Counted from the stretch's first letter, positions 10,913 to 37,708 are shown. The stretch: DNA of 64,000 nt from Candidatus Woesearchaeota archaeon (GCA_964413095.1 CAYPRJ010000002.1:563-64562), one strand, 5' to 3'. The notes: generated by a model not told the origin, from the sequence alone. A program made the numbers and translations.

Positions 10913-10964
10913 AAAAAGAATTAGTAATTCTAGTTTTTAAAATTTGTTATGAAAACAGTCTAAG

Positions 10965-13817: not shown

Positions 13818-13901
13818 ATAAAATGAACTTAACAAAAGTTTAAATAAATACCTTACTTTAAATACAATAATGCTTAAAAAACAGATGATGTTTTTAAAAA
13901 G

Positions 13902-14826: not shown

Positions 14827-15639
14827 ATGAAAAGAGGGATTTTTAACAGAGGACAAATAACTATTTTTGTAATTATTGCCCTGATTATTGTTGCTGTTGT
14901 AGTTTTGTTTTTATTTCTAAGAGGAGGAACTACTACAAAAATTGGTGGAGGGATTACAGAAGCAGATTCTGAAAGTTTTATGAAAACTTGTCTTGAAGAT
15001 AAAGTTAGAGGAGGAATTGGGATTATTTCTAATCAAGGGGGATATATTGAACCTGTTTTATACAAAGGAATTTGGTTTGATGAAGAAGGTCCAATAGATG
15101 TCTCTTATTTATGTTATACTAAGGAGGATTATGTCCCTTGTATAAATCAAGAACCATTATTAATTAAACACATACAAGATGAAATAAAAGATTACATTCA
15201 AGAAGATGTTGAAGAATGTTTTAAGAATCTGAAAAAAAGTTTAGAAAAAGGAGGTTATACAACTGAAGGAGAACTTGATAATTTTGATATTAAAATAAAG
15301 CCACAAGGTGTTATTATTGAAATAAACTCTGAACTTGTACTAACAAAAAGTGGAGAAACTTCAAGAAAAGATGGTTTTGAAATTACCTTTAAAAGTGGAT
15401 TTTATAATATAATAGAATTTGTTAAAGAAATTATTAAATTAGAACAATCAATGAGTAATTTTGATTATGCTACCCATATGGCAATATCCCCTAACTTTGA
15501 TATAAAAAGAATTACAACAAGTGATTTGTCAAAAGTTTATACTATTAAATCCCAAAAAACACAGAAGGTCTTTAGGTTTGCTGTTAGAGGAAGGGTAATA
15601 CCTCCTGGCTGGGGAATAACTTTAGAAGAGGAAGAATGA
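14827..15639 (+). CDS. cassette A, gene 1: pilin-like protein with class III (type IV pilin-type) signal peptide, 4 conserved Cys
   Basis: N-terminus MKRGIFNRGQITIFVIIALIIVAVVVLF (R-G-Q followed by a hydrophobic stretch). Paralog of 20278-21105, sharing QGG.IEP, YLCYT..YVPC..Q.PLL..HI..EIK.YI.EDV..CF..LKK and PPG[WY]GIT. Confidence 0.6.
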   Translation: MKRGIFNRGQITIFVIIALIIVAVVVLFLFLRGGTTTKIGGGITEADSESFMKTCLEDKVRGGIGIISNQGGYIEPVLYKGIWFDEEGPIDVSYLCYTKEDYVPCINQEPLLIKHIQDEIKDYIQEDVEECFKNLKKSLEKGGYTTEGELDNFDIKIKPQGVIIEINSELVLTKSGETSRKDGFEITFKSGFYNIIEFVKEIIKLEQSMSNFDYATHMAISPNFDIKRITTSDLSKVYTIKSQKTQKVFRFAVRGRVIPPGWGITLEEEE

Positions 15640-20277: not shown

Positions 20278-21105
20278 ATGAATGGAAATTCAATAAAAAA
20301 AAGAGGAAATCAGAGATTTAATTATAAAAAAAATCTTATACAACAAAAACGAGGACAAGTTACTATTTTTATTATTATTGCTGTTATTGTTGTTGCATTA
20401 GGAGTTCTTGTTTATTTATTTTATCCTCAGATTAGAACAACTTTTGGAATTAGAGAAGAAACTCCGCAAAATTATATTGACTCTTGTTTAAATGAGAAAA
20501 TAAAAGAATCTGTTGAAATACTTTCTTTACAAGGTGGAAGTATAGAACCAGAAAATTATTTTTCTTATGCAGGAGAAAAAGTTGAATATTTATGTTACAC
20601 AAATGATTATTATGTTCCTTGTGTTGTTCAGCAACCTTTATTAAAACAACATATTGAGAGAGAAATAAAAAATTACATTGCTGAAGATGTTGTTAGTTGT
20701 TTTAATTCTCTTAAAAAAAATTATCAAAAAAAAGGTTATGATGTAAGTCTTACTTCAGGAAGTACAGAAGTTGAATTATTACCAGAAAAAATTGTAACGA
20801 GTTTTGAAAGGAAATTAACTTTAACAAAGCAAGAAACAGAAGTTTATGAAAACTTTGATGTAGTTTTAAACAATAATCTTTATGAACTTGTTAGTATAGC
20901 AAATAGTATTGTGACTTCAGAAACAGAAATTGGTGATACAGAAACAACAGCTTACATGAATTATTACCATTATTTAAAAGTTGAGAAGAAAAAGCAAAGT
21001 GACGGAACAACTATTTATATTATAACAAACAGAGATACAGGAAATAAATTTCAATTTGCTTCAAGGAGTATTGTATGGCCTCCTGGATATGGCATAACAA
21101 CTTAA
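20278..21105 (+). CDS. cassette B, gene 1: pilin-like protein with class III signal peptide (paralog of 14827-15639)
   Basis: QKRGQVTIFIIIAVIVVALGVLVYLF, plus the conserved blocks listed for cassette A gene 1. It ends in WPPGYGIT. Confidence 0.6.
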   Translation: MNGNSIKKRGNQRFNYKKNLIQQKRGQVTIFIIIAVIVVALGVLVYLFYPQIRTTFGIREETPQNYIDSCLNEKIKESVEILSLQGGSIEPENYFSYAGEKVEYLCYTNDYYVPCVVQQPLLKQHIEREIKNYIAEDVVSCFNSLKKNYQKKGYDVSLTSGSTEVELLPEKIVTSFERKLTLTKQETEVYENFDVVLNNNLYELVSIANSIVTSETEIGDTETTAYMNYYHYLKVEKKKQSDGTTIYIITNRDTGNKFQFASRSIVWPPGYGITT

Positions 21106-21106
21106 A

Positions 21107-22834
21107 ATGTTGAACAAAAAAACTGTGATAATTTTTGCAGGGATTTTTTTATTTTTAATAGCTGGAATTATTTCTGCACAAACAACTTCTTATTGTTGTG
21201 AGAAAACTGTTTCAGGAGCTTGGTGTCAAAATGCTCCTGAAGAAGAATGTAATCCTAGTTTTAGAAGCGTTCCAACATCTTGTGAAGCAACTTCTTATTG
21301 TAAGCTCGGAACTTGTGTAAATTCAGGAGAAGGAACTTGCATAAAAAATACTCCAAGAATTGTTTGTGAAAATGAAGAGGGAGTCTGGTATGAACAAGAT
21401 AAAGATGAACTTTCTCAGTGCCAGCTGGGATGTTGCTTGATGGGAGACCAAGCAGCTTATGTAACACAAACAAGATGCAAGAAATTATCTTCTATTTATG
21501 GTTTAGAAACAAATTTTCAAGCAAGCATTAAAAATGAATTAACATGTATTGCAAGTGCAACTCCTGATATTGAAGGAGCTTGTGTGATTGAAGAAGAAAC
21601 AGGAAGAACTTGCAGATTTATAACAAAAAAAGAATGTCAAGAAATTGGGGGAGATTTTAATGAAGGGTTTTTGTGTTCTGCTGAAGAACTGGGAGCTGAT
21701 TGTGGTCCAAGAGGTGGAACAACTTGTGTAGAAGGAAGAGACGCAGTTTATTTTTTAGATACATGCGGAAATTTGGCAAATGTTTATGATTATTCTTTGA
21801 TTGATGATACTGATTATTGGACTTATATTCAACCTCCTGAATGTGGAGATGGGGATGGAAATAAAAATTCTGAAACTTGTGGTTTATGTGATTATTATGC
21901 TGGAAGCACTTGTGGTGAAGGAAATGCAAAATACAAAAATTATATTTGCCAAGATTTAGGTTGTGAATGGGAAGGCGAAAAATATGAACATGGCGAATCA
22001 TGGTGTGTGAAAGCTAGTGCATCTGACACAGAATCAGAAGGACATAAACCTTTAGTTAGCTCAGGAGAAACAACAGAATTCAGTGATTTAGATTCTATTA
22101 GTTTAAACAATGCAGATAATATTCCAGGAAATAGAGATTTTAGACTTTTGTGCTATAATGGGGAAGTTATGGTTGAGCCTTGTGCTGATTATAGGCAAGA
22201 AGTTTGTGTTCAGGGAGAAGTTGGTTCAGGGAATAATGCATTTAAATCAGCTGTATGTAAAACAAATTTATGGAGAGATTGTTACAGCCAGGATAATAAA
22301 AAAGATTGTGAGAACACAGACAAGAGAGATTGTGTTTGGATTAAGGGTATAAGTATTTTAACAGGAGAGAATGGAGAGGAGCTAATTGTTAAAGAATCTG
22401 GAACTGGAGAAGATGCAAATGAAGAGTTAGTTGTAAAAGAAGAAGATGAAGAGGGGGTTGGTGCGTCTTGTGTTCCGAAGTATACTCCTGGATTTGACTT
22501 TTGGAAAGAAAATACAGAGGCAGCAGATTTATGCTCAATAGCAAGTGTAACATGTACTGCTTATTTTGAAAAAGGAGTTAGTGGAGAAATAGAGAGAGTT
22601 GTTACAACAGAAGAAGATTGGTTTGGAAAAAGAGAGGATGCAGAAATAGTCTGTTTTGATAAAAGCGGAGAATTAGTTGATGACTGGATTGAGAATAGAA
22701 TACATTTATGTTCTGCTCTTGGAGATTGTGGTCTGAGTGTAAATTATGTTGGAGGATATAGTTATTATGATAAAGAGGATCTTTATTCAATAATTGAAGA
22801 AGATGAAGAATCTTCAGAAAGCAGTTCAGAATAA
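21107..22834 (+). CDS. cassette B, gene 2: Cys-rich secreted/anchored protein, equivalent to the N-terminal ~45% of the 1378-aa protein
   Basis: Collinear with cassette A gene 2: YCCEK, SCEATSYCKLGTCV, QCQLGCC, YFLDTCGNLANVYD, NYICQDLGC, ESWCV and LGDCGLSVNY. Terminates about 20 aa after the LGDCG block with an acidic tail. Confidence 0.7.
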   Translation: MLNKKTVIIFAGIFLFLIAGIISAQTTSYCCEKTVSGAWCQNAPEEECNPSFRSVPTSCEATSYCKLGTCVNSGEGTCIKNTPRIVCENEEGVWYEQDKDELSQCQLGCCLMGDQAAYVTQTRCKKLSSIYGLETNFQASIKNELTCIASATPDIEGACVIEEETGRTCRFITKKECQEIGGDFNEGFLCSAEELGADCGPRGGTTCVEGRDAVYFLDTCGNLANVYDYSLIDDTDYWTYIQPPECGDGDGNKNSETCGLCDYYAGSTCGEGNAKYKNYICQDLGCEWEGEKYEHGESWCVKASASDTESEGHKPLVSSGETTEFSDLDSISLNNADNIPGNRDFRLLCYNGEVMVEPCADYRQEVCVQGEVGSGNNAFKSAVCKTNLWRDCYSQDNKKDCENTDKRDCVWIKGISILTGENGEELIVKESGTGEDANEELVVKEEDEEGVGASCVPKYTPGFDFWKENTEAADLCSIASVTCTAYFEKGVSGEIERVVTTEEDWFGKREDAEIVCFDKSGELVDDWIENRIHLCSALGDCGLSVNYVGGYSYYDKEDLYSIIEEDEESSESSSE

Positions 22835-22850
22835 GAAGAAAGTGGATAAA

Positions 22851-25655
22851 ATGGATAAAAAAGGAAAAGGAAGTTTAGCAATAAGCCAGATTTTAATTTT
22901 AATAGTAGGAATTATAGCAATAAGTTATGCTATTGGGAGTAGTGTTGGGGAAGTTAGTGGGCAAGGAACTAGTTTTAAATATGAGACTCAAACATCTGAT
23001 TGGAAGACATTAGAAGTTAAGACATATACTGTAGGACAAGAAGATGGCACTATAATTGTTAAATCAGATAGTGGAGATATAATAAGGAAGGATAACACAG
23101 GTTTTTATTTAGATAAAAATAATAATGAGAAAAAAGACCCTGGGGAAGATTACTTTCATCCTTGTTTTTATGATTTAGTTTATGGAAATTCTGAATCAAA
23201 ATACTGTGTTGGATCAGAGACAGAAGGAGCATATAAACAAAAAGCTCCAGAAGAAGAAATTCCTGAAGAAGAAAGTGAAACAGATTATTGGGCTACTAAA
23301 GATACACAAAGAGGACCTTCTAAAGAAATTGAAACAGAAACAGAACAATCCTCTGATGATTCTTCTACTAGTTTGCCTGCTGCATTTACTACTGCATATA
23401 GTACTTACCAAGCATTTGAAAGTGCAGTTGGGAAATTAAAAGGAATCGGAGATGCAGGAGAAACATCTTTAATTTGTGGGGAAGATATACCTCCCTCTGA
23501 TCCAAGGTGTCAGGGTAAAGAACCTGGAAGTGAAGCAACTCCTGCTGGAAAAACAGATGCAGGAAATATTGCAAAAGCAGTTGGAGGAGATCTTGTTGCT
23601 CAAACATTTGATGTGGGAAATGTTATAGGAAATCCTGAGAAAACTCTTGCAGATGCTATATCTACTGAAAAGTTACCTGGTGACAAAACAGAATATTTCT
23701 TTAAAGATGGTTCTTCAGTTATTCTTGATAAAAATAATAAAGTTACTCAAATAGATACTGGACTTCCTGTTAAAGGAACAATAGCTGGATCAGCTTTAGA
23801 AAATTGGTTTAATGCTAATTCAGCAGTAGCAAACAGTGTTGGGCATATAATAGATGGTGCAGTTATTGCAGGAGGAATGTTAATATTTAGAAAAGAGATT
23901 AAAGACTTGCTTGGTGGTATTTTTGGAGAAGAAGGAGAAGGATGGGCAAGAGGTTTATCTGTTGCACTACCTGTTGCAGTTTTTGGAGTTGAAACAACTG
24001 TGGGTTTATTAAAAAAAGGAGGTTTAATAGGTGGAACAACAGGCACTACTGCAGGAGGTTGGGCTATTGGGTTAGGAATAACAGCAGTAGTAACAGTTGT
24101 AACTTTTTTAGCACATTACAAAACTTATGACCAAAAAACAGTTGTGTTTGAATGCTTACCTTGGCAACCAGATACAGGAGGAGCAGATTGTGATAAATGT
24201 AACCAACAAGGAATTCTTCCATGCAGTGAATATCAATGCAGAAGCTTAGGACAAGGTTGTGAACTTTTAAATGACGAGGAAAGTGGAGAAGCTGTTTGTG
24301 TTTATGTTAGCAGAGATGATTCAGAATATCCGACAATAGAAGCTTGGGAAGATGTTTTAACAAGTGGATATGAATACTCTCCAGATAATGCAATTTCTCC
24401 TCCAGACAGAGGTGTTAAAATAATTAATCCTGAATCAAGTGATGGATGTATTCCTGCATTTACTGCATTAAACTTTGGAATAGAATTAAACGAGCCTGCT
24501 CAGTGTAAAATAGATACAACAAGAAAGCAATCTTATGAAGAAATGAGTTTCACTATGAGCAGTGGTTTGTTCAAAGAAGAACATATTTACTCTTTAAGTT
24601 TACCTTCTCCTTCATCTTTAGAAGCAGAAGGAATAGAAACTGAAGTAGGAGGAGAACAAAATTTATATGTAAGATGCCAGGACGCAAATGGAAATTCTAA
24701 TCCTGCAACATTTATATTTAAATTTTGTATAGAAGAAGGAGCTGACACAACACCTCCTTTGATAGTTTCAACTGACTTATTAAATAATATGCCTATTGCC
24801 TATAATCAGAGTACAATAAATTTAAATCTTTATGTGAATGAACCAGCAGAGTGTAGTTGGAGTCGCAATGACCAAGCTTACGAAAATATGGAAAATAAGA
24901 TGGGTTGTTCATTGGCTGATTCTGTAAATGACATGAATGCTCAGGGACTTTATACATGTACAACAACTTTAACAGGAATAAAAGACGGTTTAAACAATAA
25001 ATTTTATTTCAGATGTAAAGACCAGCCAAGTGCAGAAGAAAGTAATAGAAACACAAATGTAGAATCTTATGAATTCACAATAAAAGGAACTCAGCCATTA
25101 GCTATTACATCTTTGAGTCCAAATGGCACAACAATAAAAGACTCAACAACAGATGTTAAAGTTACTTTAGAAGCTGAAACTTCTGCTGGGTATAATAAAG
25201 GAGAAGCAACTTGTTATTATAAAGAATCAGATGAAGCTGAAAGTGCTTATTCTATGTTTTTAGAAACAGGAAGCTATCAACATAGCCATGAATTATGGCT
25301 TAAAACAGGAGAACACAGTTATGATATCAAATGTGTAGATTTAGGAGGAAATTCAGATTATGGGGAAATAACATTTGAAGTTGAAACAGATACAAATCCT
25401 CCTGTTGTTGTGAGAGCTTATCATGAAGATACATATTTAAAAATAATCACAGATGAAAAAGCAGAATGTGTTTATGATTTTGTTGATTGTAATTATGCTT
25501 TTGACGACGGATTATCCATGACTACTACAAATGATGTAAATCACTTCACAGAATGGAAAACAAACAGAAATTTCTACATTAAATGTAGAGATGAATATGG
25601 CAGAGAACCTCGCCCAGATGAGTGCAGTATAATAGCAAAACCTTTTCAAATTTAG
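22851..25655 (+). CDS. cassette B, gene 3: membrane protein, equivalent to the C-terminal half of the 1378-aa protein
   Basis: Own N-terminal TM (GSLAISQILILIVGIIAISYAIG); a unique Gly/Thr/Ala-rich region; a TM cluster. Then ECLPW..C.KCN..GILPCSEYQCRSLGQGC and four Cys-pair repeats (EPAECSWS, FYFRCKD), ending PPVVVRAY...FYIKCRD. I place the start at the ATG at 22851; the track start at 22794 is TTG and overlaps the upstream gene. Confidence 0.7.
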   Translation: MDKKGKGSLAISQILILIVGIIAISYAIGSSVGEVSGQGTSFKYETQTSDWKTLEVKTYTVGQEDGTIIVKSDSGDIIRKDNTGFYLDKNNNEKKDPGEDYFHPCFYDLVYGNSESKYCVGSETEGAYKQKAPEEEIPEEESETDYWATKDTQRGPSKEIETETEQSSDDSSTSLPAAFTTAYSTYQAFESAVGKLKGIGDAGETSLICGEDIPPSDPRCQGKEPGSEATPAGKTDAGNIAKAVGGDLVAQTFDVGNVIGNPEKTLADAISTEKLPGDKTEYFFKDGSSVILDKNNKVTQIDTGLPVKGTIAGSALENWFNANSAVANSVGHIIDGAVIAGGMLIFRKEIKDLLGGIFGEEGEGWARGLSVALPVAVFGVETTVGLLKKGGLIGGTTGTTAGGWAIGLGITAVVTVVTFLAHYKTYDQKTVVFECLPWQPDTGGADCDKCNQQGILPCSEYQCRSLGQGCELLNDEESGEAVCVYVSRDDSEYPTIEAWEDVLTSGYEYSPDNAISPPDRGVKIINPESSDGCIPAFTALNFGIELNEPAQCKIDTTRKQSYEEMSFTMSSGLFKEEHIYSLSLPSPSSLEAEGIETEVGGEQNLYVRCQDANGNSNPATFIFKFCIEEGADTTPPLIVSTDLLNNMPIAYNQSTINLNLYVNEPAECSWSRNDQAYENMENKMGCSLADSVNDMNAQGLYTCTTTLTGIKDGLNNKFYFRCKDQPSAEESNRNTNVESYEFTIKGTQPLAITSLSPNGTTIKDSTTDVKVTLEAETSAGYNKGEATCYYKESDEAESAYSMFLETGSYQHSHELWLKTGEHSYDIKCVDLGGNSDYGEITFEVETDTNPPVVVRAYHEDTYLKIITDEKAECVYDFVDCNYAFDDGLSMTTTNDVNHFTEWKTNRNFYIKCRDEYGREPRPDECSIIAKPFQI

Positions 25656-26167: not shown

Positions 26168-26371
26168 ATGGAACAAACCACTCTTGAATCAGTTCAAAAA
26201 GAGATAGAATCTCTAAAAAAATTAGTTATTGCTATGCAAGAAACTATTTCTGATTGTTTTTTAACAGCTGAAGAGGAAGAGAATCTTGAAAGAGGGTTGA
26301 AAGAACTTGAAAAAGGAGAAGCAGTTTCTCTTCAGGATTTAGAACTTGAAAGAAAAAATGTTAGAAATTAA
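26168..26371 (+). CDS. putative type II antitoxin (small helical protein upstream of RelE-like toxin)
   Basis: 67 aa; overlaps the downstream toxin gene; the C-terminal LERGLKELEKGEAVSLQDLE resembles addiction-module antitoxin tails. Confidence 0.45.
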   Translation: MEQTTLESVQKEIESLKKLVIAMQETISDCFLTAEEEENLERGLKELEKGEAVSLQDLELERKNVRN

Positions 26372-26612
26372 ACTCTCTAATATTTCTAAAAAATTTTTAA
26401 AAAAATGTGATGAAATTCTCTATAAGAGAATTATAAAAAAGATAAAAGAACTTGTTAAGCAACCATTTCCCCCTGATTCTGTGAGAATTATTAATAGGAA
26501 AGAAAGAGTATTTAGAGTGAGAATTGGAAGTTCTAGAATAATCTATGCTGTATTTAAAGAGAAAAATTTAATTTTTATTTCAGAAATAAATAAAAGAAGT
26601 AAAATCTATTAA
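26346..26612 (+). CDS. relE: RelE/ParE-family toxin (type II TA)
   Basis: 88 aa; ...VFRVRIGSSRIIYAVFKEKNLIFISEINKRSKIY matches the RelE/StbE core pattern (yR.RvGdYRiiY.i......i.i..i.hR...Y). Confidence 0.6.
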   Translation: MKEKMLEIKLSNISKKFLKKCDEILYKRIIKKIKELVKQPFPPDSVRIINRKERVFRVRIGSSRIIYAVFKEKNLIFISEINKRSKIY

Positions 26613-26617
26613 AAAGC

Positions 26618-27073
26618 ATGAAAAAGAGGGAACTGCAAAGAAATAAAAAAGCACAAATGAAATTGTCTTTTGGAATGATTTTTTCAATAATTCTTATAAT
26701 AGTTTTTGTTGCATTTGCTTTTTATGCAATTCAAAAGTTTGTTGGGTTTCAAAAACAAATAACTATAGAAACATTTGCTGAAGATTTACAAGAGGATATA
26801 GATACTGTTTGGAAAAGTTCTCAGGCATCTCAGGAAAAAGAATATTCTTTGCCAAAAAAAATAGAAGAAGTTTGTTTTACAAATAAAGATGATTTTCAAA
26901 ATATGTATTTTGAATCTTCTGAATATGTTGCTGGAAAAAAAATAGAACATTTAAACATAGAAAAAATCGTCGAAGATAAAGATCCTTTTTGTATTAAAAC
27001 TATTAATGGAAAAGTTAAGATGATAATTAAAAAAGATTTTGGTGAATCTTTGGTTAGTATTGAAAAAAATTGA
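26618..27073 (+). CDS. pilin-like protein (class III signal peptide)
   Basis: N-terminus ...RNKKAQMKLSFGMIFSIILIIVFVAFAFYAI ([KR]-[GA]-Q followed by a hydrophobic stretch). First gene of a tightly packed four-gene operon. Confidence 0.5.
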   Translation: MKKRELQRNKKAQMKLSFGMIFSIILIIVFVAFAFYAIQKFVGFQKQITIETFAEDLQEDIDTVWKSSQASQEKEYSLPKKIEEVCFTNKDDFQNMYFESSEYVAGKKIEHLNIEKIVEDKDPFCIKTINGKVKMIIKKDFGESLVSIEKN

Positions 27074-28000
27074 ATGATGAGAAAAAAGGGGTTTCAAATG
27101 TCTTTTGCATGGCTTTTTGCAATTATTGTAGGAGGTTTTATATTATTTTTAGCAATTTATGCTACTACAAAAATCGTTAATATTGGAGAGTATGAAATGA
27201 GTGCTGAAACACAAAAAGAAATAGGTGTTTTATTAAATCCTCTTGAAACAGGAGTAGAATCAGGAAAAGTAACTTCTATGAGTATTAAAGGAGATACTAG
27301 AATTTACACACAATGTTCCAATACAAGTTTATTCGGAAAACAGATAATAAAAATATCACAAAAAAGTTTTGGGCAATGGACTGAAACATTAGAAGGAGCT
27401 TCATTCAAAAACAAATATATTTTTTCTGAAGATTTTGCAGAAGGAAAAAAGTTTTATATTTTTTCAAAACCATTTGAATTTCCATTTAAAGTAACTGATT
27501 TAATTTACCTGGGTTCTGCTTCACAAACATATTGTTTCTTAGATGCTCCTGATAATATTGAAAATGAAATAAAATTATTAGAACTGCAAAATGTAAACTT
27601 AGAAAATTGTTCAAATAAAGATGCTAAAGTTTGTTTTGGCTCTGTTTCAGAGAATTGTGATATAGAAGTTAATTATCCTGGAAAATTTGTTAAGAAAGAT
27701 AAAGAGAAAATGTATTTTGAGGGTGATACTTTAATGTATGCTGCTGTTTTTTCAACACCAGAAGTTTATGAATGCCAGGTTGAAAGACTAATGAAAAGAG
27801 CTTCTCAGTTAGCTTTGTTGTATAGAGATAAAGCGAATTTTGTTGCCAGAGAAGGCTGCAGTTCAAGTTTAAACAGCGAACTTTTGCAATTAAGTAATCT
27901 TGCAAAAAGTGTTGAAAGTTCTTCTGATTTAATTGGAATAGCAAATATTGTGGAAAAAATCAAAGAAAAAAACGAGGATGCTTATTGTAAATTATGGTAA
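27074..28000 (+). CDS. pilin-like protein (class III signal peptide), Cys-containing ectodomain
   Basis: MMRKKGFQMSFAWLFAIIVGGFILFLAIYA (K-G then a hydrophobic stretch); 308 aa with multiple Cys residues. Confidence 0.5.
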   Translation: MMRKKGFQMSFAWLFAIIVGGFILFLAIYATTKIVNIGEYEMSAETQKEIGVLLNPLETGVESGKVTSMSIKGDTRIYTQCSNTSLFGKQIIKISQKSFGQWTETLEGASFKNKYIFSEDFAEGKKFYIFSKPFEFPFKVTDLIYLGSASQTYCFLDAPDNIENEIKLLELQNVNLENCSNKDAKVCFGSVSENCDIEVNYPGKFVKKDKEKMYFEGDTLMYAAVFSTPEVYECQVERLMKRASQLALLYRDKANFVAREGCSSSLNSELLQLSNLAKSVESSSDLIGIANIVEKIKEKNEDAYCKLW

Positions 28001-28509
28001 AAAAAGCACAAATGAAAATTCAGCAGATGGCGTTTATGCTGATAGCTGTGACTTTATTTTTTGTTATGGCTGGTATGCTTGTTTTGGTTTTTAGATTTTC
28101 TGGATTAAGGGAGAAGGCAACACTTCTTGAACAAGAAAATGCCATGCTTTTAGTAAGTAAACTTGCAAATTCTCCTGAGTTTTCATGTGGAGAAGCTTTT
28201 GGAAACAGAAGAACAAATTGTATTGATGCTGATAAAGTAATGATGTTAAAAGAAAGTATTTCTAAATATATTGGTTTTTGGGGTGTTACAAATATAGAAA
28301 TTAGAAAAATTTACCCTGAATCATATGAAAATACAGAATGTGAAGTTGGAAATTATCCTGATTGCTCAGTAATCAAAATACGTTCTGGTGAAACAAAAGG
28401 TATAGGAGTAGCGAACTTTGTTTCTTTATGCAGAAAAGAGCTCTCGCAAGGAAATACTTATGATAAATGTGAATTAGCTAAATTAATTATAAGTTATGAA
28501 GAAAAATGA
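27994..28509 (+). CDS. pilin-like protein (class III signal peptide)
   Basis: MVKKAQMKIQQMAFMLIAVTLFFVMAGMLVLVF. Overlaps the upstream gene by 7 nt. Confidence 0.5.
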   Translation: MVKKAQMKIQQMAFMLIAVTLFFVMAGMLVLVFRFSGLREKATLLEQENAMLLVSKLANSPEFSCGEAFGNRRTNCIDADKVMMLKESISKYIGFWGVTNIEIRKIYPESYENTECEVGNYPDCSVIKIRSGETKGIGVANFVSLCRKELSQGNTYDKCELAKLIISYEEK

Positions 28510-29012
28510 TGGATAAAATTTTCTCAAAATCAGGGCAAGAAGAGATGGTAGGGTTTGCATTAATAATAATTCTAGTATCTGTTATTTTGTTAGTTTTTTT
28601 GGGAATTTTTTTGTCAAGAGGTTCTGGAAGTGAAAGTGTGGAAAGTTATGAAGTAGAAAGTTTTGTTCAGGCATCTCTTCAATATACAACAGACTGCAAG
28701 GATAATTTTGGATATCTTTCAGTAAGAGAGCTGATTTTTGATTGTGATGATGAAGAAACTTGTTTAGATGAAAGAGATACTTGTGAAGTTCTTAATTCAA
28801 CTTTAAGAGAAATTATAGAAGAAAGCTGGGATGTTGGACAAGAAAGTCCTGTAAAAGGATATAATTTAGAGATTATTTACAATGAAGTTTACAATGAAGA
28901 AAATTCATTTATTTTAAATAAGGGAAATGTCACTTCTAATTCTAAAGGTTCTGTGCAAGAGTTTTCAAGAGGAGGAGATTCTGTTGAGTTAAATCTTGTT
29001 GTTTATTATTAA
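28506..29012 (+). CDS. pilin-like protein (class III signal peptide)
   Basis: MMDKIFSKSGQEEMVGFALIIILVSVILLVFLGIF (S-G-Q with acidic +2/+3 positions and a hydrophobic stretch). ATGA overlap with the upstream gene. Confidence 0.5.
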   Translation: MMDKIFSKSGQEEMVGFALIIILVSVILLVFLGIFLSRGSGSESVESYEVESFVQASLQYTTDCKDNFGYLSVRELIFDCDDEETCLDERDTCEVLNSTLREIIEESWDVGQESPVKGYNLEIIYNEVYNEENSFILNKGNVTSNSKGSVQEFSRGGDSVELNLVVYY

Positions 29013-29356
29013 ATTTTCAGATGAATTATAACATTATCAGTTGTTATTTTTGGTCTGTATCTTATTCTGTTTTTTGTGCTTTCTTTAATTAGCTCGATGA
29101 AGCCAAATCTTTTGAGAAGTTTTACATCATCATTAACAGATTTAAAACCTCTGTCAAGTTTTTTAGCTAAATCATATATAGATATTGGCTCTTTTGTTTT
29201 TATAACATGTAAAATTCTTGCTTTTTCATTGTGCAAAAGCTGTCTTAATGCTAAAATTCCTGAAAAATCATAATCCTTTTTAGATGTCTTGGGTTTTTTG
29301 AATAAAGAAAATGCTCCTTTTGATTGTATAATTGTTATTTCTCTTGTTTTTGTCAT
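29009..29356 (-). CDS. winged-helix transcriptional regulator
   Basis: 115 aa; ARILHVIKTKEPISIYDLAKKLDRGFKSVNDDVKLLKRFGFIE fits the ArsR/MarR-like wHTH pattern. Convergent with the pilin-like operon and overlaps its end by 4 nt. Confidence 0.55.
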   Translation of the reverse strand: MTKTREITIIQSKGAFSLFKKPKTSKKDYDFSGILALRQLLHNEKARILHVIKTKEPISIYDLAKKLDRGFKSVNDDVKLLKRFGFIELIKESTKNRIRYRPKITTDNVIIHLKI

Positions 29357-29743: not shown

Positions 29744-32398
29744 ATGAAACTTTTTAGAAAGATTTCAGCAATCGCAGCTAGTGCACTGATGGTAGGTATG
29801 TCTGCTGGTATTGCTGCTGCTGCAAATTATCCTAGCCCTTTTGTGGTTGGAGGTAGTGCAGATGTAGCAATTGTGTATGGTTCAGATTCTCCTAATGGAA
29901 TTGATATAGTTCCTGCAGGAAACATTCAAACAAATCTGCAATCACACATGGGAACATCAACTGATGGTACAACTACAACAAGTGGAGAGATTTATGCTTT
30001 AGATACTGGCTCAGATAGAATCTACATGAATGATACTCTTGATAATGTAAATAGTCTTGTAACAAGTACAGACATGCCAACTGCTTTAGCAGATACTACA
30101 TTTAGTGGTGCTGCTGATGGAACTTCAACTAAGTCAACTACAGTAAGTCACACTATAGAAATAGGAGATGATGCTAGATTAGAATTTGACCAACAACCAT
30201 CTCCAAGTACAGAACCTGGAGTAGTTTGGGATTTGCCAACAACAGCTTCTGCATCAAGTCAGATATTTAATTTGACAGTAGATTTTGACAATGCAATTAA
30301 TTTCACAGACACAGATTCTCACGGAGAAGAAATAACATTGTTTGGAAAGGCATATACTGTTGGAGCAAGTACAACTAACACTAGTTTATATCTTCTTGGA
30401 GCTTCTGACAAAGTAAGTTTAGAAGTTGGAACAGGAGCTACTGGCTCAAGTTCTGCAACAGTAACTGTTGACGGAGAAGAATATACTGTTGAGTTAATGA
30501 CTGCATCAGATTCTGATGCAAAAATCAGCATAACAGATTCTTCCGGAGATTCTAAGACTAAGACAATTAGTCAAGATACGTCTGCAACACTTCTTGGAGT
30601 AGATGTTACTGTATCAGATCCATTTAGTAGTACACCACAAAATACAGAAGGAGCTGATGTATCTGTTGGAACAGGACAAGTTCTTTTGAAAGATGGAAGT
30701 AGTGTTAAAGTTACTTCTGATGAAGACACAGTAACTGGAACAAACGTTGTTTTCGATTCAGGACTTGTAGATATAACAAGTATATCTATCCAGGTTTCTG
30801 CAGAAGATGCTAGTTCAGATGGAATTAATGAAGGAGAAGAGTTTGTTGACCCTGTGTTTGAAGCAGTAAAATTAATGTTTCCTGGATTGAACATTCCTTT
30901 AGATTCATCTGACAGAGAAACAATATCTATTAAAACAACAGATGACCGTGCTACAATAAGTTTCACTACAGACGATGGAGAATCACTAAGTGACTTTAAC
31001 TGGTATTACAATGCTTCTAACAGTGGTGGAGTGGCAGAACTTGGAGATTCTGAAGGTAATGACATCCATGTTGTAGAAGGAGCTAATATATCTACAACAG
31101 AAAATGGTACTGAATATGTAGTTGTAGGAAACGAAAATACTGGACACTTATTGCAGTTGACAACATTAACTAACCTCACAGATGGATATAGTGATGATGA
31201 AGTAATCTTTACAGACCAAGCTTCAGGTAAAGAGCACTCACCAACAATTAGTAGTGAAGGTAGTGGTACAATGAAAATTGGCGGAACATCATATACTGTA
31301 ACATATGTAAAATTATCAGGCAATGAATATGGATATGTTTTCTTGGACTATGATGGAACAGCTGGAAAGATAGATGTATACCCAACTATTGAAACTTCCA
31401 AAGGAGCAAAGCTTGCGTTTTATGAACCATTGAATATTAGTTTGAATAATGTAGATGGTGCTAATGCAGATGCAAGTGAGATAGCACTCCCTAATGGAGA
31501 TGGCTTCAGTACTTTTAGTGTTTCCAGTCATGGTAACGATTCATGGAAAATTGACTCAAAAGTAGTAAATACTAGCTTGGATGCCAATGGAACAACTCTT
31601 AGTGCAGGAGAGCTTACTTATGTCATTAATGGTAGTGCTGCCAACCAAACACAAATCAGACTTAGAGATGTTGATGGAAGTGAAATAGACTATCCAGGAA
31701 TTATCTTGTTTGAAGAGCAAGATGATGACAACTCTAACTATGAAGCACTTATTGTAAAGATGAGTGATGGTGGAACTGTTTCTGTTAGTGATGTTGAAGA
31801 TACATGGAATAGTGACAGCAGACCTAGTGGCTGGAAACATGAAGTCCAACTAGAATCTGACACTGACTTGTATAGAGAAATGAACTTGTGGGGAACTATC
31901 GTCACAGTAGACCAATCTGATTCAGACAACCATGATGCTGAAATTAGTTACCCTGACGAGCAAGTCTATGCACAAATGTACTTAGGAGCTTCTGATGCAA
32001 GTGTTTCAGGAGTTACAAGCACAACAAGTAGTTCAGAACAGTTAGGAGATGTTCTTGTTAAAGATAGTGAAGTAAGCTCTGTAAGTTCAAAGAACTTAAT
32101 AGTAGTTGGTGGAAGCTGTGTAAACTCAGTTGCTGCTAATTTATTAGGAGGAGCTTATTGTGGAAGTAGTTTCACAGACAACACAGATGTTGGTTCAGGA
32201 CAATTCTTGATCCAAAGCTTTGGCGATGCTTACACAAGTGGTAAGGTTGCTTTATTAGTTGCTGGTTATGAAGCTGCAGACACTGTAAATGCTGCTACTT
32301 ATCTAAGAACTCAAACTGTTGATGCAACTGCTGGTAAGAAGTACAAAGGTACTTCATCAACTAGTGCTGAACTTGTAACAGAAGAAAGTTCTGAATAA
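29744..32398 (+). CDS. S-layer protein (major surface glycoprotein candidate)
   Basis: Signal peptide MKLFRKISAIAASALMVGMSAGIAAAA, then NYPSPFVVGGSADVAIVYGS. Thr/Ser/Asp-rich with many N-x-S/T sequons. The C-terminal NLIVVGGSCVNSVAANLLGG...VALLVAGYEAADTVNAATYL resembles the archaeal S-layer C-terminal domain. Codon composition is visibly different and less AT-rich than in neighbouring genes. Confidence 0.65.
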   Translation: MKLFRKISAIAASALMVGMSAGIAAAANYPSPFVVGGSADVAIVYGSDSPNGIDIVPAGNIQTNLQSHMGTSTDGTTTTSGEIYALDTGSDRIYMNDTLDNVNSLVTSTDMPTALADTTFSGAADGTSTKSTTVSHTIEIGDDARLEFDQQPSPSTEPGVVWDLPTTASASSQIFNLTVDFDNAINFTDTDSHGEEITLFGKAYTVGASTTNTSLYLLGASDKVSLEVGTGATGSSSATVTVDGEEYTVELMTASDSDAKISITDSSGDSKTKTISQDTSATLLGVDVTVSDPFSSTPQNTEGADVSVGTGQVLLKDGSSVKVTSDEDTVTGTNVVFDSGLVDITSISIQVSAEDASSDGINEGEEFVDPVFEAVKLMFPGLNIPLDSSDRETISIKTTDDRATISFTTDDGESLSDFNWYYNASNSGGVAELGDSEGNDIHVVEGANISTTENGTEYVVVGNENTGHLLQLTTLTNLTDGYSDDEVIFTDQASGKEHSPTISSEGSGTMKIGGTSYTVTYVKLSGNEYGYVFLDYDGTAGKIDVYPTIETSKGAKLAFYEPLNISLNNVDGANADASEIALPNGDGFSTFSVSSHGNDSWKIDSKVVNTSLDANGTTLSAGELTYVINGSAANQTQIRLRDVDGSEIDYPGIILFEEQDDDNSNYEALIVKMSDGGTVSVSDVEDTWNSDSRPSGWKHEVQLESDTDLYREMNLWGTIVTVDQSDSDNHDAEISYPDEQVYAQMYLGASDASVSGVTSTTSSSEQLGDVLVKDSEVSSVSSKNLIVVGGSCVNSVAANLLGGAYCGSSFTDNTDVGSGQFLIQSFGDAYTSGKVALLVAGYEAADTVNAATYLRTQTVDATAGKKYKGTSSTSAELVTEESSE

Positions 32399-32704: not shown

Positions 32705-33295
32705 ATGAGAAAAATAGTTTCAAAACAAAAACAAGAGAAAAAGAAGAAAAAAAATCAGTTGATTGTAGGAATAGTTCTTGTATCTATAATGCTTTTTAGT
32801 GTTATTGGATATTCTTTTACTGCAAGGGATAATTCTTCTCAAAAGAGAATAGTTTATAATGGAATTGATTTTTTAGAAAATAATGGCTACTGGTTTGCAG
32901 AGATATTTGGAGCTGAATTTTTCTTCAAATATAATCCAAAAGAAACAGAAAACTTAACAGAGATAAATGTTTTAAAAGATATTAATGATTATTTAGAAAA
33001 ACCTCTTTACATTTATTCAGAAAATTATAATGCAGAAAGAGAAATATATCAGAATCTTGATAAAGTTGTTTTAAGAAGGCAGTATGCTTGTCCTGATTTA
33101 GAAAATTCAACAGCAGAATTTGAATGTGATTCTGAATGGCCAGTAAAAACTTGTGAAGATAATTTTATCATAATTCAAGAATCTGAAAACAGCGAAGTAA
33201 AGCAAGAGGAAAATTGTATTTTTATTTATGGCAAAGGAGAGGAAATTATAAAAGCAACAGATAAGTTTTTATTTGAAATACTTAAAGTGCAATAA
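32705..33295 (+). CDS. N-terminally membrane-anchored protein, unknown function
   Basis: A K-rich N-terminus, one TM segment (LIVGIVLVSIMLFSVIGYSF) and a Cys-containing ectodomain. Confidence 0.5.
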   Translation: MRKIVSKQKQEKKKKKNQLIVGIVLVSIMLFSVIGYSFTARDNSSQKRIVYNGIDFLENNGYWFAEIFGAEFFFKYNPKETENLTEINVLKDINDYLEKPLYIYSENYNAEREIYQNLDKVVLRRQYACPDLENSTAEFECDSEWPVKTCEDNFIIIQESENSEVKQEENCIFIYGKGEEIIKATDKFLFEILKVQ

Positions 33296-33326
33296 ACCTT
33301 AAAAACCTTTATAGAGAAATATAAAA

Positions 33327-34058
33327 ATGGAAGATAAAAAAGAAGATGAAAAAAGAGAAGATAAAGAGGAAAAAGAAAAAAATATAGATAAAGAAGAAAA
33401 AGAAAAAGGAGTTTCAAAGAGTAAAGAAAGTGAAACTTTAAAGAAATTTCTTATTGGAATAGGTGTTTTTATTTTAATTATTTTAGGAGTTGTTTGGGGG
33501 GCTAATGCCATGAATAGTTTTAATTATAATGGAGTTGATTTTGTGAAAGAAAGTTTTTGCGACGCTGAACCTTGTTTGTTAGTATATAAAGCTTCTTTTC
33601 CTGTTCAATATAAAGACAGCATAACTGGAAAAGTAGTTTCTACAGATTATAATATTTATTTAAGAAACGACCCAAGAAAACTCGAAGAAGTTCCTTTTAA
33701 TGGAGAACTTTTGTTAAGAAAAGATGTTGTGCTTGATATCGCGGGAAATTTTGACTGCGACGGAGATCAAAATATTGCAATTGCTAATATGCTAAAATTA
33801 GATATTTTTGGAGTAAAAATAATCAAAGATGAAAATGCAACTTGTGATTCTCATGGCAGATACACTTTTATACAAGTACAGGAAGCTAATGAATCTTATA
33901 TAGAACAAACAGGACCATCTTGTTATACTTTAAATGTTGCTGATTGTGAGATTTTAGAAGTTACTGAAAGATTTATGGTAGAATATTTTGTAAAAAGTGA
34001 GGGAAAAACAAGGGAAGAAGGGAAAATCAAAGAAATAATTAATAATTTGTTTAACTAG
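33327..34058 (+). CDS. N-terminally membrane-anchored protein with K/E-rich cytoplasmic head, unknown function
   Basis: MEDKKEDEKREDKEEKEKNIDKEEKEKG, then a TM segment (FLIGIGVFILIILGVVWGA), then a Cys-containing ectodomain. Confidence 0.5.
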   Translation: MEDKKEDEKREDKEEKEKNIDKEEKEKGVSKSKESETLKKFLIGIGVFILIILGVVWGANAMNSFNYNGVDFVKESFCDAEPCLLVYKASFPVQYKDSITGKVVSTDYNIYLRNDPRKLEEVPFNGELLLRKDVVLDIAGNFDCDGDQNIAIANMLKLDIFGVKIIKDENATCDSHGRYTFIQVQEANESYIEQTGPSCYTLNVADCEILEVTERFMVEYFVKSEGKTREEGKIKEIINNLFN

Positions 34059-34065
34059 GATAGAA

Positions 34066-34545
34066 ATGGATTTTAGATTTATTTATGCATTAATTCTCAC
34101 AGTTTTGCCTGTAACAGAATTGAGAGTTGGACTGCCATTAGCTGTTTTATATGCTACAGAAAATCAAATTCCTATTTTATTAGTTTTTGCTTCTGTTATT
34201 TTATTAAATATTTTAGTTATTTTTTTTATATTTTATTTTTTAGATAATATTCATAAAATGCTTTTGGGATTGAAAATATATCAAAGGTTTTTTAATGCTT
34301 ATCTAAAGAAATTTCAAAAAAGAATGGATAAGTTTGAAAAGAAATATGAATCCATGGGATTTTTTGCTTTGATGTTTCTCGTTGCTGTTCCTCTTCCAGG
34401 AACTGGTGCTTGGACAGGCTGTCTTGTTTCATGGCTTATGGGTTTAGATAGAAAAAAGAGTATTCTTGCAATAGCTTCAGGAGTTTTGATAGCAGGAATT
34501 ATTATACTTCTTGGAACAATAAAAATGATTAGTGCTTTTTCTTGA
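34066..34545 (+). CDS. small multidrug-export-like membrane protein (PF06695-like)
   Basis: 159 aa; LPVTELRVGLPLAV near the N-terminus and a four-TM layout, as in the 'putative small multi-drug export' family. Confidence 0.5.
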   Translation: MDFRFIYALILTVLPVTELRVGLPLAVLYATENQIPILLVFASVILLNILVIFFIFYFLDNIHKMLLGLKIYQRFFNAYLKKFQKRMDKFEKKYESMGFFALMFLVAVPLPGTGAWTGCLVSWLMGLDRKKSILAIASGVLIAGIIILLGTIKMISAFS

Positions 34546-35074
34546 ATTTTCTGACTTTTCCAAAAATAAATTTTAAATCTGAATAAAAAGGAATTCCTTT
34601 GATTTTGAATATTTTTACCTCAGCAAACCAAATTGCAACTACAAAGAAAATACTTCCAGCATACCAAAAAAGTTTATGGGCTATGTCAAACCAAGTTTTT
34701 TCATAAGCATATGCTAACCCTAAAACAAAAATTCTTAAAACATTTACAAAGAAAAAAGTTCCAAAAGAAAAAAGAAGCATCTTTAATCTTTTATTGATTT
34801 TTATTCTTGGAATTGATAAATTTAAAATTACAAGAAGATAATATGCTGAACCTGCAACACAAGCTTTTACCAGTTCTATAGGGATTTTATTGTTAAGTAA
34901 AATTGTGCTTCCTTGAAGTGAAGTTTCAAAAAAAAAGCTGAACAAGAAAAAAGTTGCATAAGCTGTCAGAGGCGTGAAAACAAAATAAAAAATCCAAAGA
35001 TTAGGAATAGCAAGAAATAACAGGATTATATACCTAAAAAAAATATTTGAAAATCGGATTTGAAGTTTTTTCAT
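34529..35074 (-). CDS. archaeosortase/exosortase-family transpeptidase (small, pacearchaeosortase-like)
   Basis: Polytopic membrane protein with the family Cys/Arg/His triad in the expected order: VKACVAGSAYY (Cys), FFVNVLRIF (Arg), DIAHKLFWY (His). First ATG is at 35074. Confidence 0.6.
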   Translation of the reverse strand: MKKLQIRFSNIFFRYIILLFLAIPNLWIFYFVFTPLTAYATFFLFSFFFETSLQGSTILLNNKIPIELVKACVAGSAYYLLVILNLSIPRIKINKRLKMLLFSFGTFFFVNVLRIFVLGLAYAYEKTWFDIAHKLFWYAGSIFFVVAIWFAEVKIFKIKGIPFYSDLKFIFGKVRKFKKKH

Positions 35075-35122
35075 AAAAGTCAAAGTAGAAATTTATTTAA
35101 ATAATTTGGCTTTTGAAAATTC

Positions 35123-35737: not shown

Positions 35738-37708
35738 TTATTCTTTTTTTCTGACAAGTCTCACTGCAACAAAGATAATTATCAAAACTAAGATTATGTT
35801 TAGTGCTCCAATTCCCCATAAATACCAGTTTTCTTCTGAAATTATTCCTCCAGTTATAGAGTTAAAATTAAAACCTGCTTTTTCAATTGTGACTGTAACT
35901 GGCTGGGAAATAACGTTTTCATCTTCAGTTAATATTACACTGAAAGCTTTTTCTCCTGAAACATCTTTGTTTACATTTAATGTGATTAAAATATCTTCAG
36001 ATTCTTCTGAATCAAGAACTAATACTTCAGGAGCAACATCTACTAGTTCTGACCAAGAGCTGTAACCATCTGCGCTTGTTGTGAAAGTTCTTGTTTCTGA
36101 AGCAGTGTTTGTAACTGTTGCCTTGACAACAAGTTCTTCTCCTGCAATTCCACCAGATTGTAATGAAGTAGAAATTGTTGCTTCTGGCTTGAAAATGCAA
36201 TTTCCTTCAATTGTTAAATAATCAGAATATATTGCTTCTTCATCTTCCTTGCTTGTTTCAAAAACATCGCCATCACTCATATCTTCATCATCATAAGCTA
36301 TGAATTCAATTTTATAAGTTCCTTCTTCAAAGTCCTCTGGAATTTGAATATAAAAAGAAATCTTTTCACTATCCATTGCATCAATTCCTGAAGAAAATTC
36401 AAATTCTTCATTAATTCCTAATGCTTTATTATATACTAAAACATAAACTTCGTCATCATCTAAGTCATCATCTCCTACATTCCAAACATCTGCTGTTATT
36501 TGGACTTCAGAGCCACAAGTAACTGGACTTGCTGGTTCAAAATGTATATCATTTATTATTACAAATTCATCATCTGTTACTATCTCTATTTCTTGAGAAT
36601 CTGAATCTCCAGTTTTATCTCCATCAACATCATCTGGTGCGCTATTATCATCAATTATTCCAACTGCTTTTATATAAACTGTATACTCTGTATTACCCTC
36701 TTCTAATTCATCTGCATCAACTTCAAAAATCATTGTAACATCTAAATCATCTCCTTCATCTAAATCAAATTTATCATCACTTATATCCATATCATCTTCA
36801 TCAAAAATGCATTTTTCATCTTCTTCATCCCAAATACAAGCTTCAATTTCAATATCTTCAATATCCCACTCACCTTTATTATCTACATTAAAATCTATTT
36901 TAACTTCATCAAAAGGATACCAATAATCTTCATCATCACCAAATCCTGATTCTGTATTAAAATCAATATCAGAAACTTTTAAGTTTCCTTGATTTTCTCC
37001 TGTATAGAAAGGAAGATTTGTTGAAACTTTGCCAGTAGTTGTTGTTTCATCATCTGCAGTTGCAGTAACTGTTACTGATTGTGGTCCAACACCACTTAAA
37101 GAACTTGTTCTTGTAATGGTAATTAATTTAGTAGTTCCTTCAGAGATAGAAGCTATTTTATCAGAAGAATCTACATCTCCAGAAATATTTACATCAAAAT
37201 CTCCTGATGCAGTAATTTGAATGTTTTCTAAAAGTGTATTTCCGTCATTAGTAAGAGTAAGAGTTGTTGTGTTTTCAGAATAAGATATTGTTTCTGAAGT
37301 AAGAGATAGTGATTTGTCTTGGTTGATTGTAATTGCTGAAAGAGTTAATTCATTAGATAATACTAGGTTATCCTTTACTTTTAATTTTGCATCACTAATA
37401 GTTCCTGAAGCATATTGATTTACTTTAAGAACTGCTGTTAAAGTTATCTCATCGCCATTGTTAATTGAAGTGATTGTTGGAAGTGTTTTCCAAGTTGCTT
37501 TTGAACCAGCATCACTTTCTGACCAATCAAGAGAATCGTAATCATCTGTTGCAGTTAAATTAAAACTAATTGTGGCCTCAGAATTATGGTCAACAGTTGT
37601 AGAGGACCAAGAATTTTCTTCTAATGTCAAACTTGCACTTGCAAAACTAACTAACATTAGCAATGTAAAAACACTTAAACTCAATAATGTAAAAAACTTG
37701 TTTTTCAT
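35738..37708 (-). CDS. acidic cell-surface protein with signal peptide and C-terminal TM plus basic tail (candidate archaeosortase substrate)
   Basis: Signal peptide ...LMLVSFASA; Thr/Asp/Glu-rich beta-rich repeats. C-terminus is GGIISEENWYLWGIGALNIILVLIIIFVAVRLVRKKE-stop. Its stop directly abuts the PAP2 gene stop. Confidence 0.55.
   Translation of the reverse strand: MKNKFFTLLSLSVFTLLMLVSFASASLTLEENSWSSTTVDHNSEATISFNLTATDDYDSLDWSESDAGSKATWKTLPTITSINNGDEITLTAVLKVNQYASGTISDAKLKVKDNLVLSNELTLSAITINQDKSLSLTSETISYSENTTTLTLTNDGNTLLENIQITASGDFDVNISGDVDSSDKIASISEGTTKLITITRTSSLSGVGPQSVTVTATADDETTTTGKVSTNLPFYTGENQGNLKVSDIDFNTESGFGDDEDYWYPFDEVKIDFNVDNKGEWDIEDIEIEACIWDEEDEKCIFDEDDMDISDDKFDLDEGDDLDVTMIFEVDADELEEGNTEYTVYIKAVGIIDDNSAPDDVDGDKTGDSDSQEIEIVTDDEFVIINDIHFEPASPVTCGSEVQITADVWNVGDDDLDDDEVYVLVYNKALGINEEFEFSSGIDAMDSEKISFYIQIPEDFEEGTYKIEFIAYDDEDMSDGDVFETSKEDEEAIYSDYLTIEGNCIFKPEATISTSLQSGGIAGEELVVKATVTNTASETRTFTTSADGYSSWSELVDVAPEVLVLDSEESEDILITLNVNKDVSGEKAFSVILTEDENVISQPVTVTIEKAGFNFNSITGGIISEENWYLWGIGALNIILVLIIIFVAVRLVRKKE

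Follow-up and report, generated by a model that had tools for sequence, protein, structure and literature searches.

Four tightly packed genes at positions 26618-29012 of a 64,000-nucleotide stretch of DNA from Candidatus Woesearchaeota archaeon (GCA_964413095.1 CAYPRJ010000002.1:563-64562; hereafter the window) are predicted to encode four different N-terminally anchored, disulfide-containing, extracytoplasmic proteins of prepilin-like character. We put at roughly 50% the probability that these proteins constitute a lineage-wide set of four minor-pilin-like or pseudopilus envelope proteins in Pacearchaeota-type DPANN archaea. The open reading frames (ORFs) all lie on the plus strand: the prepilin-like ORF1 (26618-27073, 151 amino acids, aa), ORF2 (27074-28000, 308 aa), ORF3 (27994-28509, 171 aa) and ORF4 (28506-29012, 168 aa). 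ORF1 and ORF2 abut with 0 nt between them, ORF2 and ORF3 overlap by 7 nt, and ORF3 and ORF4 by 4 nt. Positions, sizes and packing agree with the original prediction, which also named the convergent winged helix-turn-helix (wHTH) regulator at the end of the operon (29009-29356, minus strand, 115 aa). The wHTH gene overlaps the stop of ORF4 by 4 nt, and its product matches the HVO_A0114 family (Pfam PF25212, E = 2.4e-15). The window has a G+C content of about 29% and contains archaeal markers, namely PCNA and an S-layer protein of the S_layer_C family; the public homologues carry the labels Pacearchaeota, Woesearchaeota or Nanoarchaeota. Together with the pacearchaeosortase described below, these features identify the source as a DPANN archaeon of the Pacearchaeota type.

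The prepilin-like character is read from the N-termini. Each protein begins with the basic head, short motif and hydrophobic stretch that had been noticed at the outset, the motif taking in ORF2 the variant form KKG↓FQMSF (the arrow marks the putative point of cleavage). ORF1 has the leader MKKRELQRNKKA, a putative cleavage before Q13 and the mature N-terminus QMKLSFGMIFSIILII. The leader MMRKKG of ORF2 is followed by FQMSFAWLFAIIVGGFILFLA; ORF3 has the leader MVKKA, Gln at +1 and the mature N-terminus QMKIQQMAFMLIAVTLFF, and ORF4 the leader MMDKIFSKSG, Gln at +1 and an invariant QEE ahead of MVGFALIIIL. The predicted mature N-termini thus open with QMKLSFG (ORF1), (YL)QISFAW (ORF2), QLKIQQMAF (ORF3) and QEEMVGF (ORF4). 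The hydrophobic stretches extend over 19-23 or more residues, with Kyte-Doolittle means of 2.5-3.4 over 19 residues, so that the overall layout is a short basic leader ending in [KR]-[G/A/S] in front of an N-terminal hydrophobic helix of about 20 residues.

Site statistics were collected from alignments of 72-85 homologues per family, drawn from 80 GTDB genomes. Position -1 is occupied by G, A or S in all 66 sequences of the ORF1 family, in 79/79 of the ORF3 family and in 73/73 of the ORF4 family. K or R is found at -2 in 54/66, 70/79 and 58/73 sequences, and Gln at +1 in 61/66 (92%), 79/79 and 73/73, respectively. The same pattern recurs in the family of the prepilin-like protein encoded at 20278, the first gene of an upstream cassette (-1 G, A or S in 38/38; -2 K or R in 33/38; +1 Gln in 38/38). 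The ORF2 family departs from it: the aligned small residue is G or A in 67/85 members and the Gln sits at +2 or +3, giving KKG↓(Y/F)(L)Q-I-S-F-A-W. The leader, with a length of about 3 to 25 aa, is the least conserved segment (mean column identity 0.33-0.50), and the 28 residues after the site are the best conserved (0.75-0.81 vs 0.57-0.66 for the globular part). Even remote relatives of ORF3, at about 35-45% identity, still show [KR][GAS]↓Q[LFM]KIQ[QE]MAF. Among the 70 window ORFs of at least 100 aa, the combination of [KR]x?[GAS]Q with a hydrophobic stretch occurs in only five, all from this locus (ORF1, ORF3, ORF4 and the gene-1 proteins of both cassettes), and is thus not a chance feature.

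On this alignment evidence, the [GAS]↓Q pattern is under selection and behaves as a recognition site for a peptidase would if placed where the helix meets the cytoplasm. The processing sites of the Epd pilins of Methanococcus maripaludis have been mapped experimentally as RAQI, KGQV, KGQL and KGQI (PMC4371748), and the Epd pilin peptidase EppA requires Gln at +1 (PMC4371748; PMC2910488). Because the pattern coincides with these mapped sites, we read it as a putative site of the EppA type; the Gln at +1 that characterizes EppA substrates is present in ORF1, ORF3, ORF4 and the cassette gene-1 family.

The four families are well delimited and widespread. Homologues at about 55-73% identity number 1218 for ORF2 and 1699 for ORF3, all of them unnamed or labelled 'hypothetical' and none with a precomputed Pfam domain; one member of the ORF3 family bears the automatic UniRef name 'PilX N-terminal domain-containing'. 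When the ORF3 family was used as a profile, an exhaustive search returned 538 clusters at 50% identity with E <= 1e-3, 324 of them with E <= 1e-10, and the family reaches much wider than a single genus. Comparison of the four families by hhalign found similarity restricted to the N-terminal segment, as it is among pilins, with a probability of 93% for ORF1 vs ORF2 and weak scores for the other pairs. The expectation of Cys-containing domains was borne out in every family: invariant Cys number 2 in ORF1, 8 in ORF2 and 6 in ORF3 (three pairs, one of them C-terminal), and ORF4 has four conserved Cys, 3 invariant and 1 present in at least 90% of sequences. Because the conserved Cys come in even numbers, they indicate extracellular domains. 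The only weak match to recur is that to DUF7248, a 58-aa N-terminal Pfam model of unknown function, which is found below threshold in 10 of 25 ORF1-family members.

Two observations concern the extent of individual proteins. The public NCBI gene call for ORF2 (300 aa) is 100% identical to the window ORF over 97% of the length and, judging from its length, probably begins at Met9, which would drop the basic KKG leader; the longer start is the conserved one among homologues. Some ORF3-family members are 346-399 aa long (P0249, P0319 and P0339; for example, positions 9929-11200 of locus L086), in which some 200 inserted residues separate the N-terminal two-thirds from the final two strands, a layout of 'pilin with an inserted domain'. 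A Pfam scan of remote or fused ORF3 relatives yielded nothing.

Gene order, fixed across about 170 loci, supports treating the four genes as one unit. In the 80 GTDB genomes, the block is largely collinear and consists of PCNA, an optional and a further cassette, ORF1-2-3-4, the convergent wHTH gene and the S-layer gene. The optional cassette has genes for a 256-aa prepilin-like protein and a protein of about 1200 aa; the further one has genes for a 260-aa prepilin-like protein and for proteins of 550 and 750 aa. The S-layer gene is followed by genes for two N-anchored proteins, a convergent pacearchaeosortase, PAP2 and a convergent CARDB-like protein. Median gaps inside ORF1-4 are 1, -7 and -4 nt (about 70 genomes); from the upstream large gene to ORF1 the median gap is 131 nt, and often more than 200 nt. 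Another 87, more divergent loci (27-41% G+C) keep the order ORF1-2-3-4 wherever neighbours are visible, with one partial exception (L132), and the wHTH, S-layer and sortase genes usually still follow. Other lineages have the four genes with no cassette at all, and only some loci carry genes for the large Cys-rich cassette proteins upstream of ORF1-4. A gene for a trypsin-like protease precedes the module in L001-3 and L088-L092; in the cassette-less L088, L089, L091 and L092, the trypsin-like serine protease gene and an ORF of about 90 aa lie upstream of the ORF1 homologues. In L086, a cassette of the type at 14827-19772 is placed between ORF2 and ORF3, and cassettes and the four genes hence remain together through rearrangement when both are present.

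The four genes are therefore the conserved core of this region, with cassettes as optional partners; no neighbours are more constant than the wHTH and S-layer genes. The original prediction had placed the four genes immediately downstream of duplicated cassettes. A ParE toxin/antitoxin pair and about 500 bp of non-coding DNA in fact intervene, and the module is also found without cassettes and is tied more constantly to the wHTH and S-layer genes. The idea that ORF1-4 are a mere extension of the duplicated cassettes was rejected, since the module exists in cassette-less loci.

Structure models were obtained for ORF2 and ORF3. The AlphaFold model of ORF3, built from a 32-sequence alignment, has a pLDDT of 83 and comprises a continuous helix over residues 2-58 (57 residues), followed by a short region of helical loop and, at 100-167, by four strands; this predicted topology is the general one of type IV pilins. 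The ORF2 model, also with a pLDDT of 83, has a helix at 11-53, a beta domain and a C-terminal four-helix region. The predicted folds are compatible with a pilin reading and not diagnostic of it.

If ORF1-4 do form a minor-pilin-like set, they might work as follows. Since they abut or overlap, the four genes would be co-translated at a constant ratio. Each product would enter the membrane with its basic leader inside, and an EppA-type class III (prepilin) signal peptidase, requiring Gln at +1, would cut off the leader. The four conserved hydrophobic N-terminal helices could then pack together, leaving the disulfide-bonded globular domains outside the membrane; speculatively, the invariant K3 of ORF3 could pair with E2-E3 of ORF4 between subunits. 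The outcome would be a hetero-oligomeric minor-pilin-like complex beneath the S-layer, forming either a pseudopilus stub or one end, tip or base, of a short pilus. In some genomes, this complex may present or anchor the large Cys-rich cassette proteins, each with its own prepilin-like partner. Peptidase, ATPase and platform would come from genes at other places in the genome.

Functionally, the closest known systems are the Epd pilins of M. maripaludis, by the type of site, and the four-member minor-pilin sets of bacteria, by organization. ORF1-4 share with the Epd pilins and other EppA substrates (DUF361, 'system 1') the short basic leader and a [KR][GA]↓Q site with a conserved +1 Gln, and as in the Epd system several small pilin-like proteins are encoded together with large adhesin-like ones. 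Unlike the Epd pilins, ORF1-4 have no match to Class_IIIsignal or Pilin_N and are polar or charged at +2 to +6. They also lack the QXSXEXXXL motif of the EppA-substrate/DUF361 pilins, of which ORF2 has Q-x-S only, and the locus is devoid of EppA, the ATPase and the two platform genes that define the Epd cluster.

The core minor pilins of bacteria (GspH-I-J-K; FimU-PilV-PilW-PilX; ComGD-GG) are likewise four pilin-like proteins from one tight operon, with similarity confined to the N-terminal helix. As in those sets, a single member is roughly double the size of the rest, with an added helical domain; in this respect ORF2 (308 aa) may correspond to GspK. Some bacterial minor-pilin systems are also associated with a large adhesin, there PilY1-like. 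By contrast, ORF1-4 display no detectable homology or fold match to bacterial minor pilins in PDB sequences or by Foldseek. ORF1, ORF3 and ORF4 have the archaeal type of site with +1 Gln rather than the bacterial G↓F...E5 or G↓[FM]xxxE, and the neighbourhood has neither a major pilin nor machinery. The likeness to the bacterial sets is one of organization only.

Two further archaeal systems invite comparison. FlaF and FlaG (ArlF/ArlG) of the archaellum stator are small and monotopic, combine a pilin-like N-terminal helix with an extracellular domain and act at the S-layer, and the ORF1-4 module is genomically tied to an S-layer gene. ORF1-4 differ from them in having no Pfam archaellin or FlaG match and no Foldseek match, in being four proteins instead of two, and in the lack of archaellum genes nearby. 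The subunits of the Sulfolobus bindosome resemble ORF1-4 in bearing a class-III-type N-terminus on proteins that are not necessarily filament subunits (PMC2910488), but they are recognizable substrate-binding proteins, whereas ORF1-4 have no recognizable domain. The distinguishing traits of the four-gene module are its fixed architecture, high conservation, polar residues past the site, coupling to the S-layer locus and lack of nearby machinery.

The cassettes lie upstream on the same strand. Gene 1 of the nearer one (20278-21105, plus strand) encodes a 275-aa prepilin-like protein with the site KRG↓QVTIFIIIAV, which matches a FlaFind-like hexamer. It is followed at 21107-25655 (plus strand) by genes for two large Cys-rich envelope proteins of 575 aa, with a Sec-type signal, and 953 aa, the latter with an N-terminal transmembrane segment and an internal transmembrane hairpin. 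The other cassette (14827-19772, plus strand) consists of genes for a 270-aa prepilin-like protein (NRG↓QITIFVII) and a 1378-aa protein with 66 Cys. This 1378-aa protein (15636-19772) looks like a fusion of both large proteins at 21107-25655; BLAST similarity was seen to the 22794-like protein only. An N-terminal transmembrane segment combined with an internal two-helix hairpin, as present in the proteins at 15636 and 22794, is unusual for adhesins.

Downstream of the wHTH gene lies the S-layer gene (29744-32398, plus strand), whose 884-aa product matches Pfam S_layer_C (E = 2.4e-10) and has a Sec-type signal without a C-terminal anchor. The genes after it (32705-34058, plus strand) encode two N-anchored, Cys-containing proteins of 196 and 243 aa that lack a [GAS]↓Q site. 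The pacearchaeosortase gene (34529-35083, minus strand; NCBIfam NF033505, 212 bits against a cut-off of 80; Pfam Exosortase_EpsH) is a marker of the lineage and also characterizes the region as one of envelope biogenesis. Near it, a 656-aa protein (35738-37708, minus strand) has a Sec-type signal, a C-terminal transmembrane helix with a basic tail and a weak sub-threshold fn3-type match (E = 8.5e-4); judging from these features, it is a likely sortase substrate. The S-layer protein, unlike the 656-aa protein, has no C-terminal sortase-type signal. A further surface protein of 580 aa (42781-44523, minus strand) ends in a CBM96 carbohydrate-binding module (E = 4e-17), and its N-terminal Cys might mark a candidate lipobox. 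A literature search on the associated families (HVO_A0114, DUF7248 and pacearchaeosortase) found no paper in the library searched.

An antitoxin gene and a gene for a ParE-family toxin (26168-26612, plus strand; Pfam ParE_toxin, E = 1.5e-6) form a pair that ends 5 nt before ORF1. The pair is missing at this position from most related loci and is an insertion that lies outside the four-gene module. Toxin/antitoxin modules are found repeatedly at the intergenic joints of the ORF1-4 operon: positions 9074-9999 of L015, between ORF1 and ORF2, contain a pair that resembles, judged from translations, a nucleotidyltransferase and a HEPN-like protein. An insert of about 1 kb is present at the ORF1/ORF2 joint in about 14 of 71 loci, and inserts of 0.4-0.6 kb at other joints in several. 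Farther away, the gene for the DNA primase large subunit (10965-13835, minus strand) is split by an intein that contains a LAGLIDADG homing-endonuclease domain, and a free-standing LAGLIDADG ORF is found at 40564-41370 (minus strand).

A substantial body of results weighs against the minor-pilin-like interpretation. Pfam and NCBIfam scans of ORF1-4 returned no family above threshold, nor did scans of 25-32 relatives for each of the ORF1, ORF3 and ORF4 families; the models Pilin_N (PF07790) and Class_IIIsignal (PF04021) and the NCBIfam N-terminal models of pilins and archaellins found no match at E <= 0.1-1, and profile searches of PDB sequences found none. Because the tests of membership in curated pilin families failed, we do not file the four families under any of these, and describe them as a variant of the prepilin-like theme. 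The FlaFind-like hexamer, [KRDE][GA][ALIFQMVED][ILMVTAS]x3, matches none of ORF1-4 and is found only in both cassette gene-1 proteins. In ORF1, ORF3 and ORF4, the hydrophobic run begins 3-8 residues past the putative site, and polar or charged residues follow the site itself (QMK in ORF1, the invariant K3 and Q5-Q6 in ORF3, the invariant E2-E3 in ORF4). The class-III-signal-like architecture put forward in the original prediction is supported by the selected pattern at -1, -2 and +1; no pilin model matches it. The fold leaves a similarly divided picture: the long N-terminal helices of ORF2 and ORF3 and the four strands of ORF3 agree with a pilin, but Foldseek comparison of the ORF2 and ORF3 models with the PDB retrieved no pilin, the best results having E = 0.07-0.1 and TM-scores of at most 0.2. 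The sequence conservation of 55-73% is unusually high for pilins, and the constant neighbour of the module is an S-layer gene and not a pilus locus.

The search for filament machinery points the same way. A Pfam search of about 37 window ORFs (taking in most of its larger or membrane proteins) found no ATPase of the T2SSE/FlaI type, no platform protein of the FlaJ/TadC type and no A24 peptidase; the sole P-loop protein found in the window is a helicase (53054-55021). A six-frame scan of the window revealed no G-x-G-D-x-K peptidase motif, and a multi-pass membrane ORF (1034-1777) considered as a hidden prepilin peptidase was rejected for lack of GxGD. These scans agree with the earlier statement that the window has no assembly ATPase, platform or peptidase. 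Regular-expression scans of about 170 related loci (about 2 Mb) encountered no filament-ATPase Walker motif or GxGDxK within about 10 kb of the module, the single match being an ABC-transporter ATPase, and neither five context look-ups in distant lineages nor 80 additional metagenome loci had assembly machinery beside it. Published work on type IV filaments in DPANN archaea is contradictory. He et al. report type IV pilus components as missing from DPANN genomes (bioRxiv 10.1101/2020.05.14.094862), a further point against the pilin-like interpretation. According to a 2026 census, some DPANN possess type IV filament clusters of the Epd-type 'system 1', 4A and Aap-like kinds (bioRxiv 10.64898/2026.04.22.720090). 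Annotations of FlaI, FlaJ and FlaK exist for Nanoarchaeota and Woesearchaeota (PMC8407392) and of FlaIJK for a recently proposed order of DPANN (PMC8561730), and Makarova et al. describe nanoarchaeal ATPases without identifiable pilins (PMC4858521).

Much of this would be expected if the prepilin likeness were superficial and ORF1-4 formed a complex of uncleaved signal anchors (N-in, C-out), with ectodomains under the S-layer, that anchors or scaffolds the S-layer protein or serves envelope biogenesis. We regard this as somewhat unlikely, while recognizing that it would account for the missing matches to pilin families and folds, for the lack of type IV filament machinery nearby in about 170 loci, and for a sequence conservation typical of a fixed complex. 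ORF1-4 adjoin the wHTH and S-layer genes, followed by the two N-anchored proteins and the pacearchaeosortase, even where cassettes are lacking, and the S-layer protein has a Sec-type signal but no C-terminal anchor of its own. The literature claim that DPANN lack type IV pilus components (bioRxiv 10.1101/2020.05.14.094862) fits as well. An uncleaved anchor, however, leaves unexplained why a small residue and an invariant Gln should occupy exactly the cytoplasmic edge of the helix in four unrelated families and in the cassette partners, and why the leader should vary freely in length and sequence. The adjacency to the S-layer gene is itself weak functional evidence, as synteny in one order of small genomes also includes housekeeping genes such as those of PCNA and SepF, and true type IV pilus loci of archaea often include S-layer-like genes (PMC4858521). 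At the other extreme, the basic N-termini with their hydrophobic stretches, present in all four proteins, could be taken for ordinary Sec signals, cut by signal peptidase I past the hydrophobic region to release soluble secreted proteins. This is very improbable, and we rejected it: the hydrophobic regions are too long, reaching transmembrane length, and too conserved, being the best-conserved part of the proteins. In the AlphaFold models they run on as helices of 43-57 residues, there is no conserved small-x-small site after them, and the genuine Sec signals of the window (29744 and 21107) look different.

It is also conceivable, if decidedly unlikely, that the four proteins are processed by a prepilin peptidase and never polymerized, making up a static membrane complex in contact with the S-layer, akin to the bindosome or to FlaF/FlaG and without a dedicated ATPase or platform. 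The site evidence that speaks for a minor-pilin-like set speaks equally for such a complex, an ATPase or platform gene is never adjacent, and the S-layer gene is the constant neighbour. It is established that class III signals occur on proteins other than filament subunits and that FlaF binds the S-layer. ORF1-4 nevertheless have no sequence or fold similarity to FlaF, FlaG or substrate-binding proteins, on the last of which class III signals do occur (PMC2910488). A tight operon with four different subunits is more reminiscent of a set of minor pilins. A further argument against this kind of complex is that assembly of the Bas bindosome of Sulfolobus itself needs a type IV filament-like ATPase and platform.

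A more speculative scenario, which we consider unlikely, joins several of these elements. Pacearchaeota-type DPANN, lacking a filament ATPase and platform as He et al. claim for DPANN, may have kept a four-subunit prepilin-like 'stub', a self-assembling N-terminal helix bundle bridging the membrane and the anchor-less S-layer and offering a socket for the huge Cys-rich proteins that hold the host. If true, this stub would be a motor-less descendant of type IV filaments turned into a fixed organelle of envelope and attachment.

Few DPANN archaea are as reduced or as strongly attached to their hosts as Pacearchaeota, which He et al. single out for this strong attachment (bioRxiv 10.1101/2020.05.14.094862). 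The module adjoins an S-layer gene, a regulator and giant surface proteins, and it bears on how Pacearchaeota build their envelope and hold their hosts. It comprises four well-defined families without a Pfam or NCBIfam model and with a sharp, testable processing signature, and it supplies targets for proteomics of mature N-termini, for cryo-tomography of enrichments and for new family models that would replace the label 'hypothetical'.

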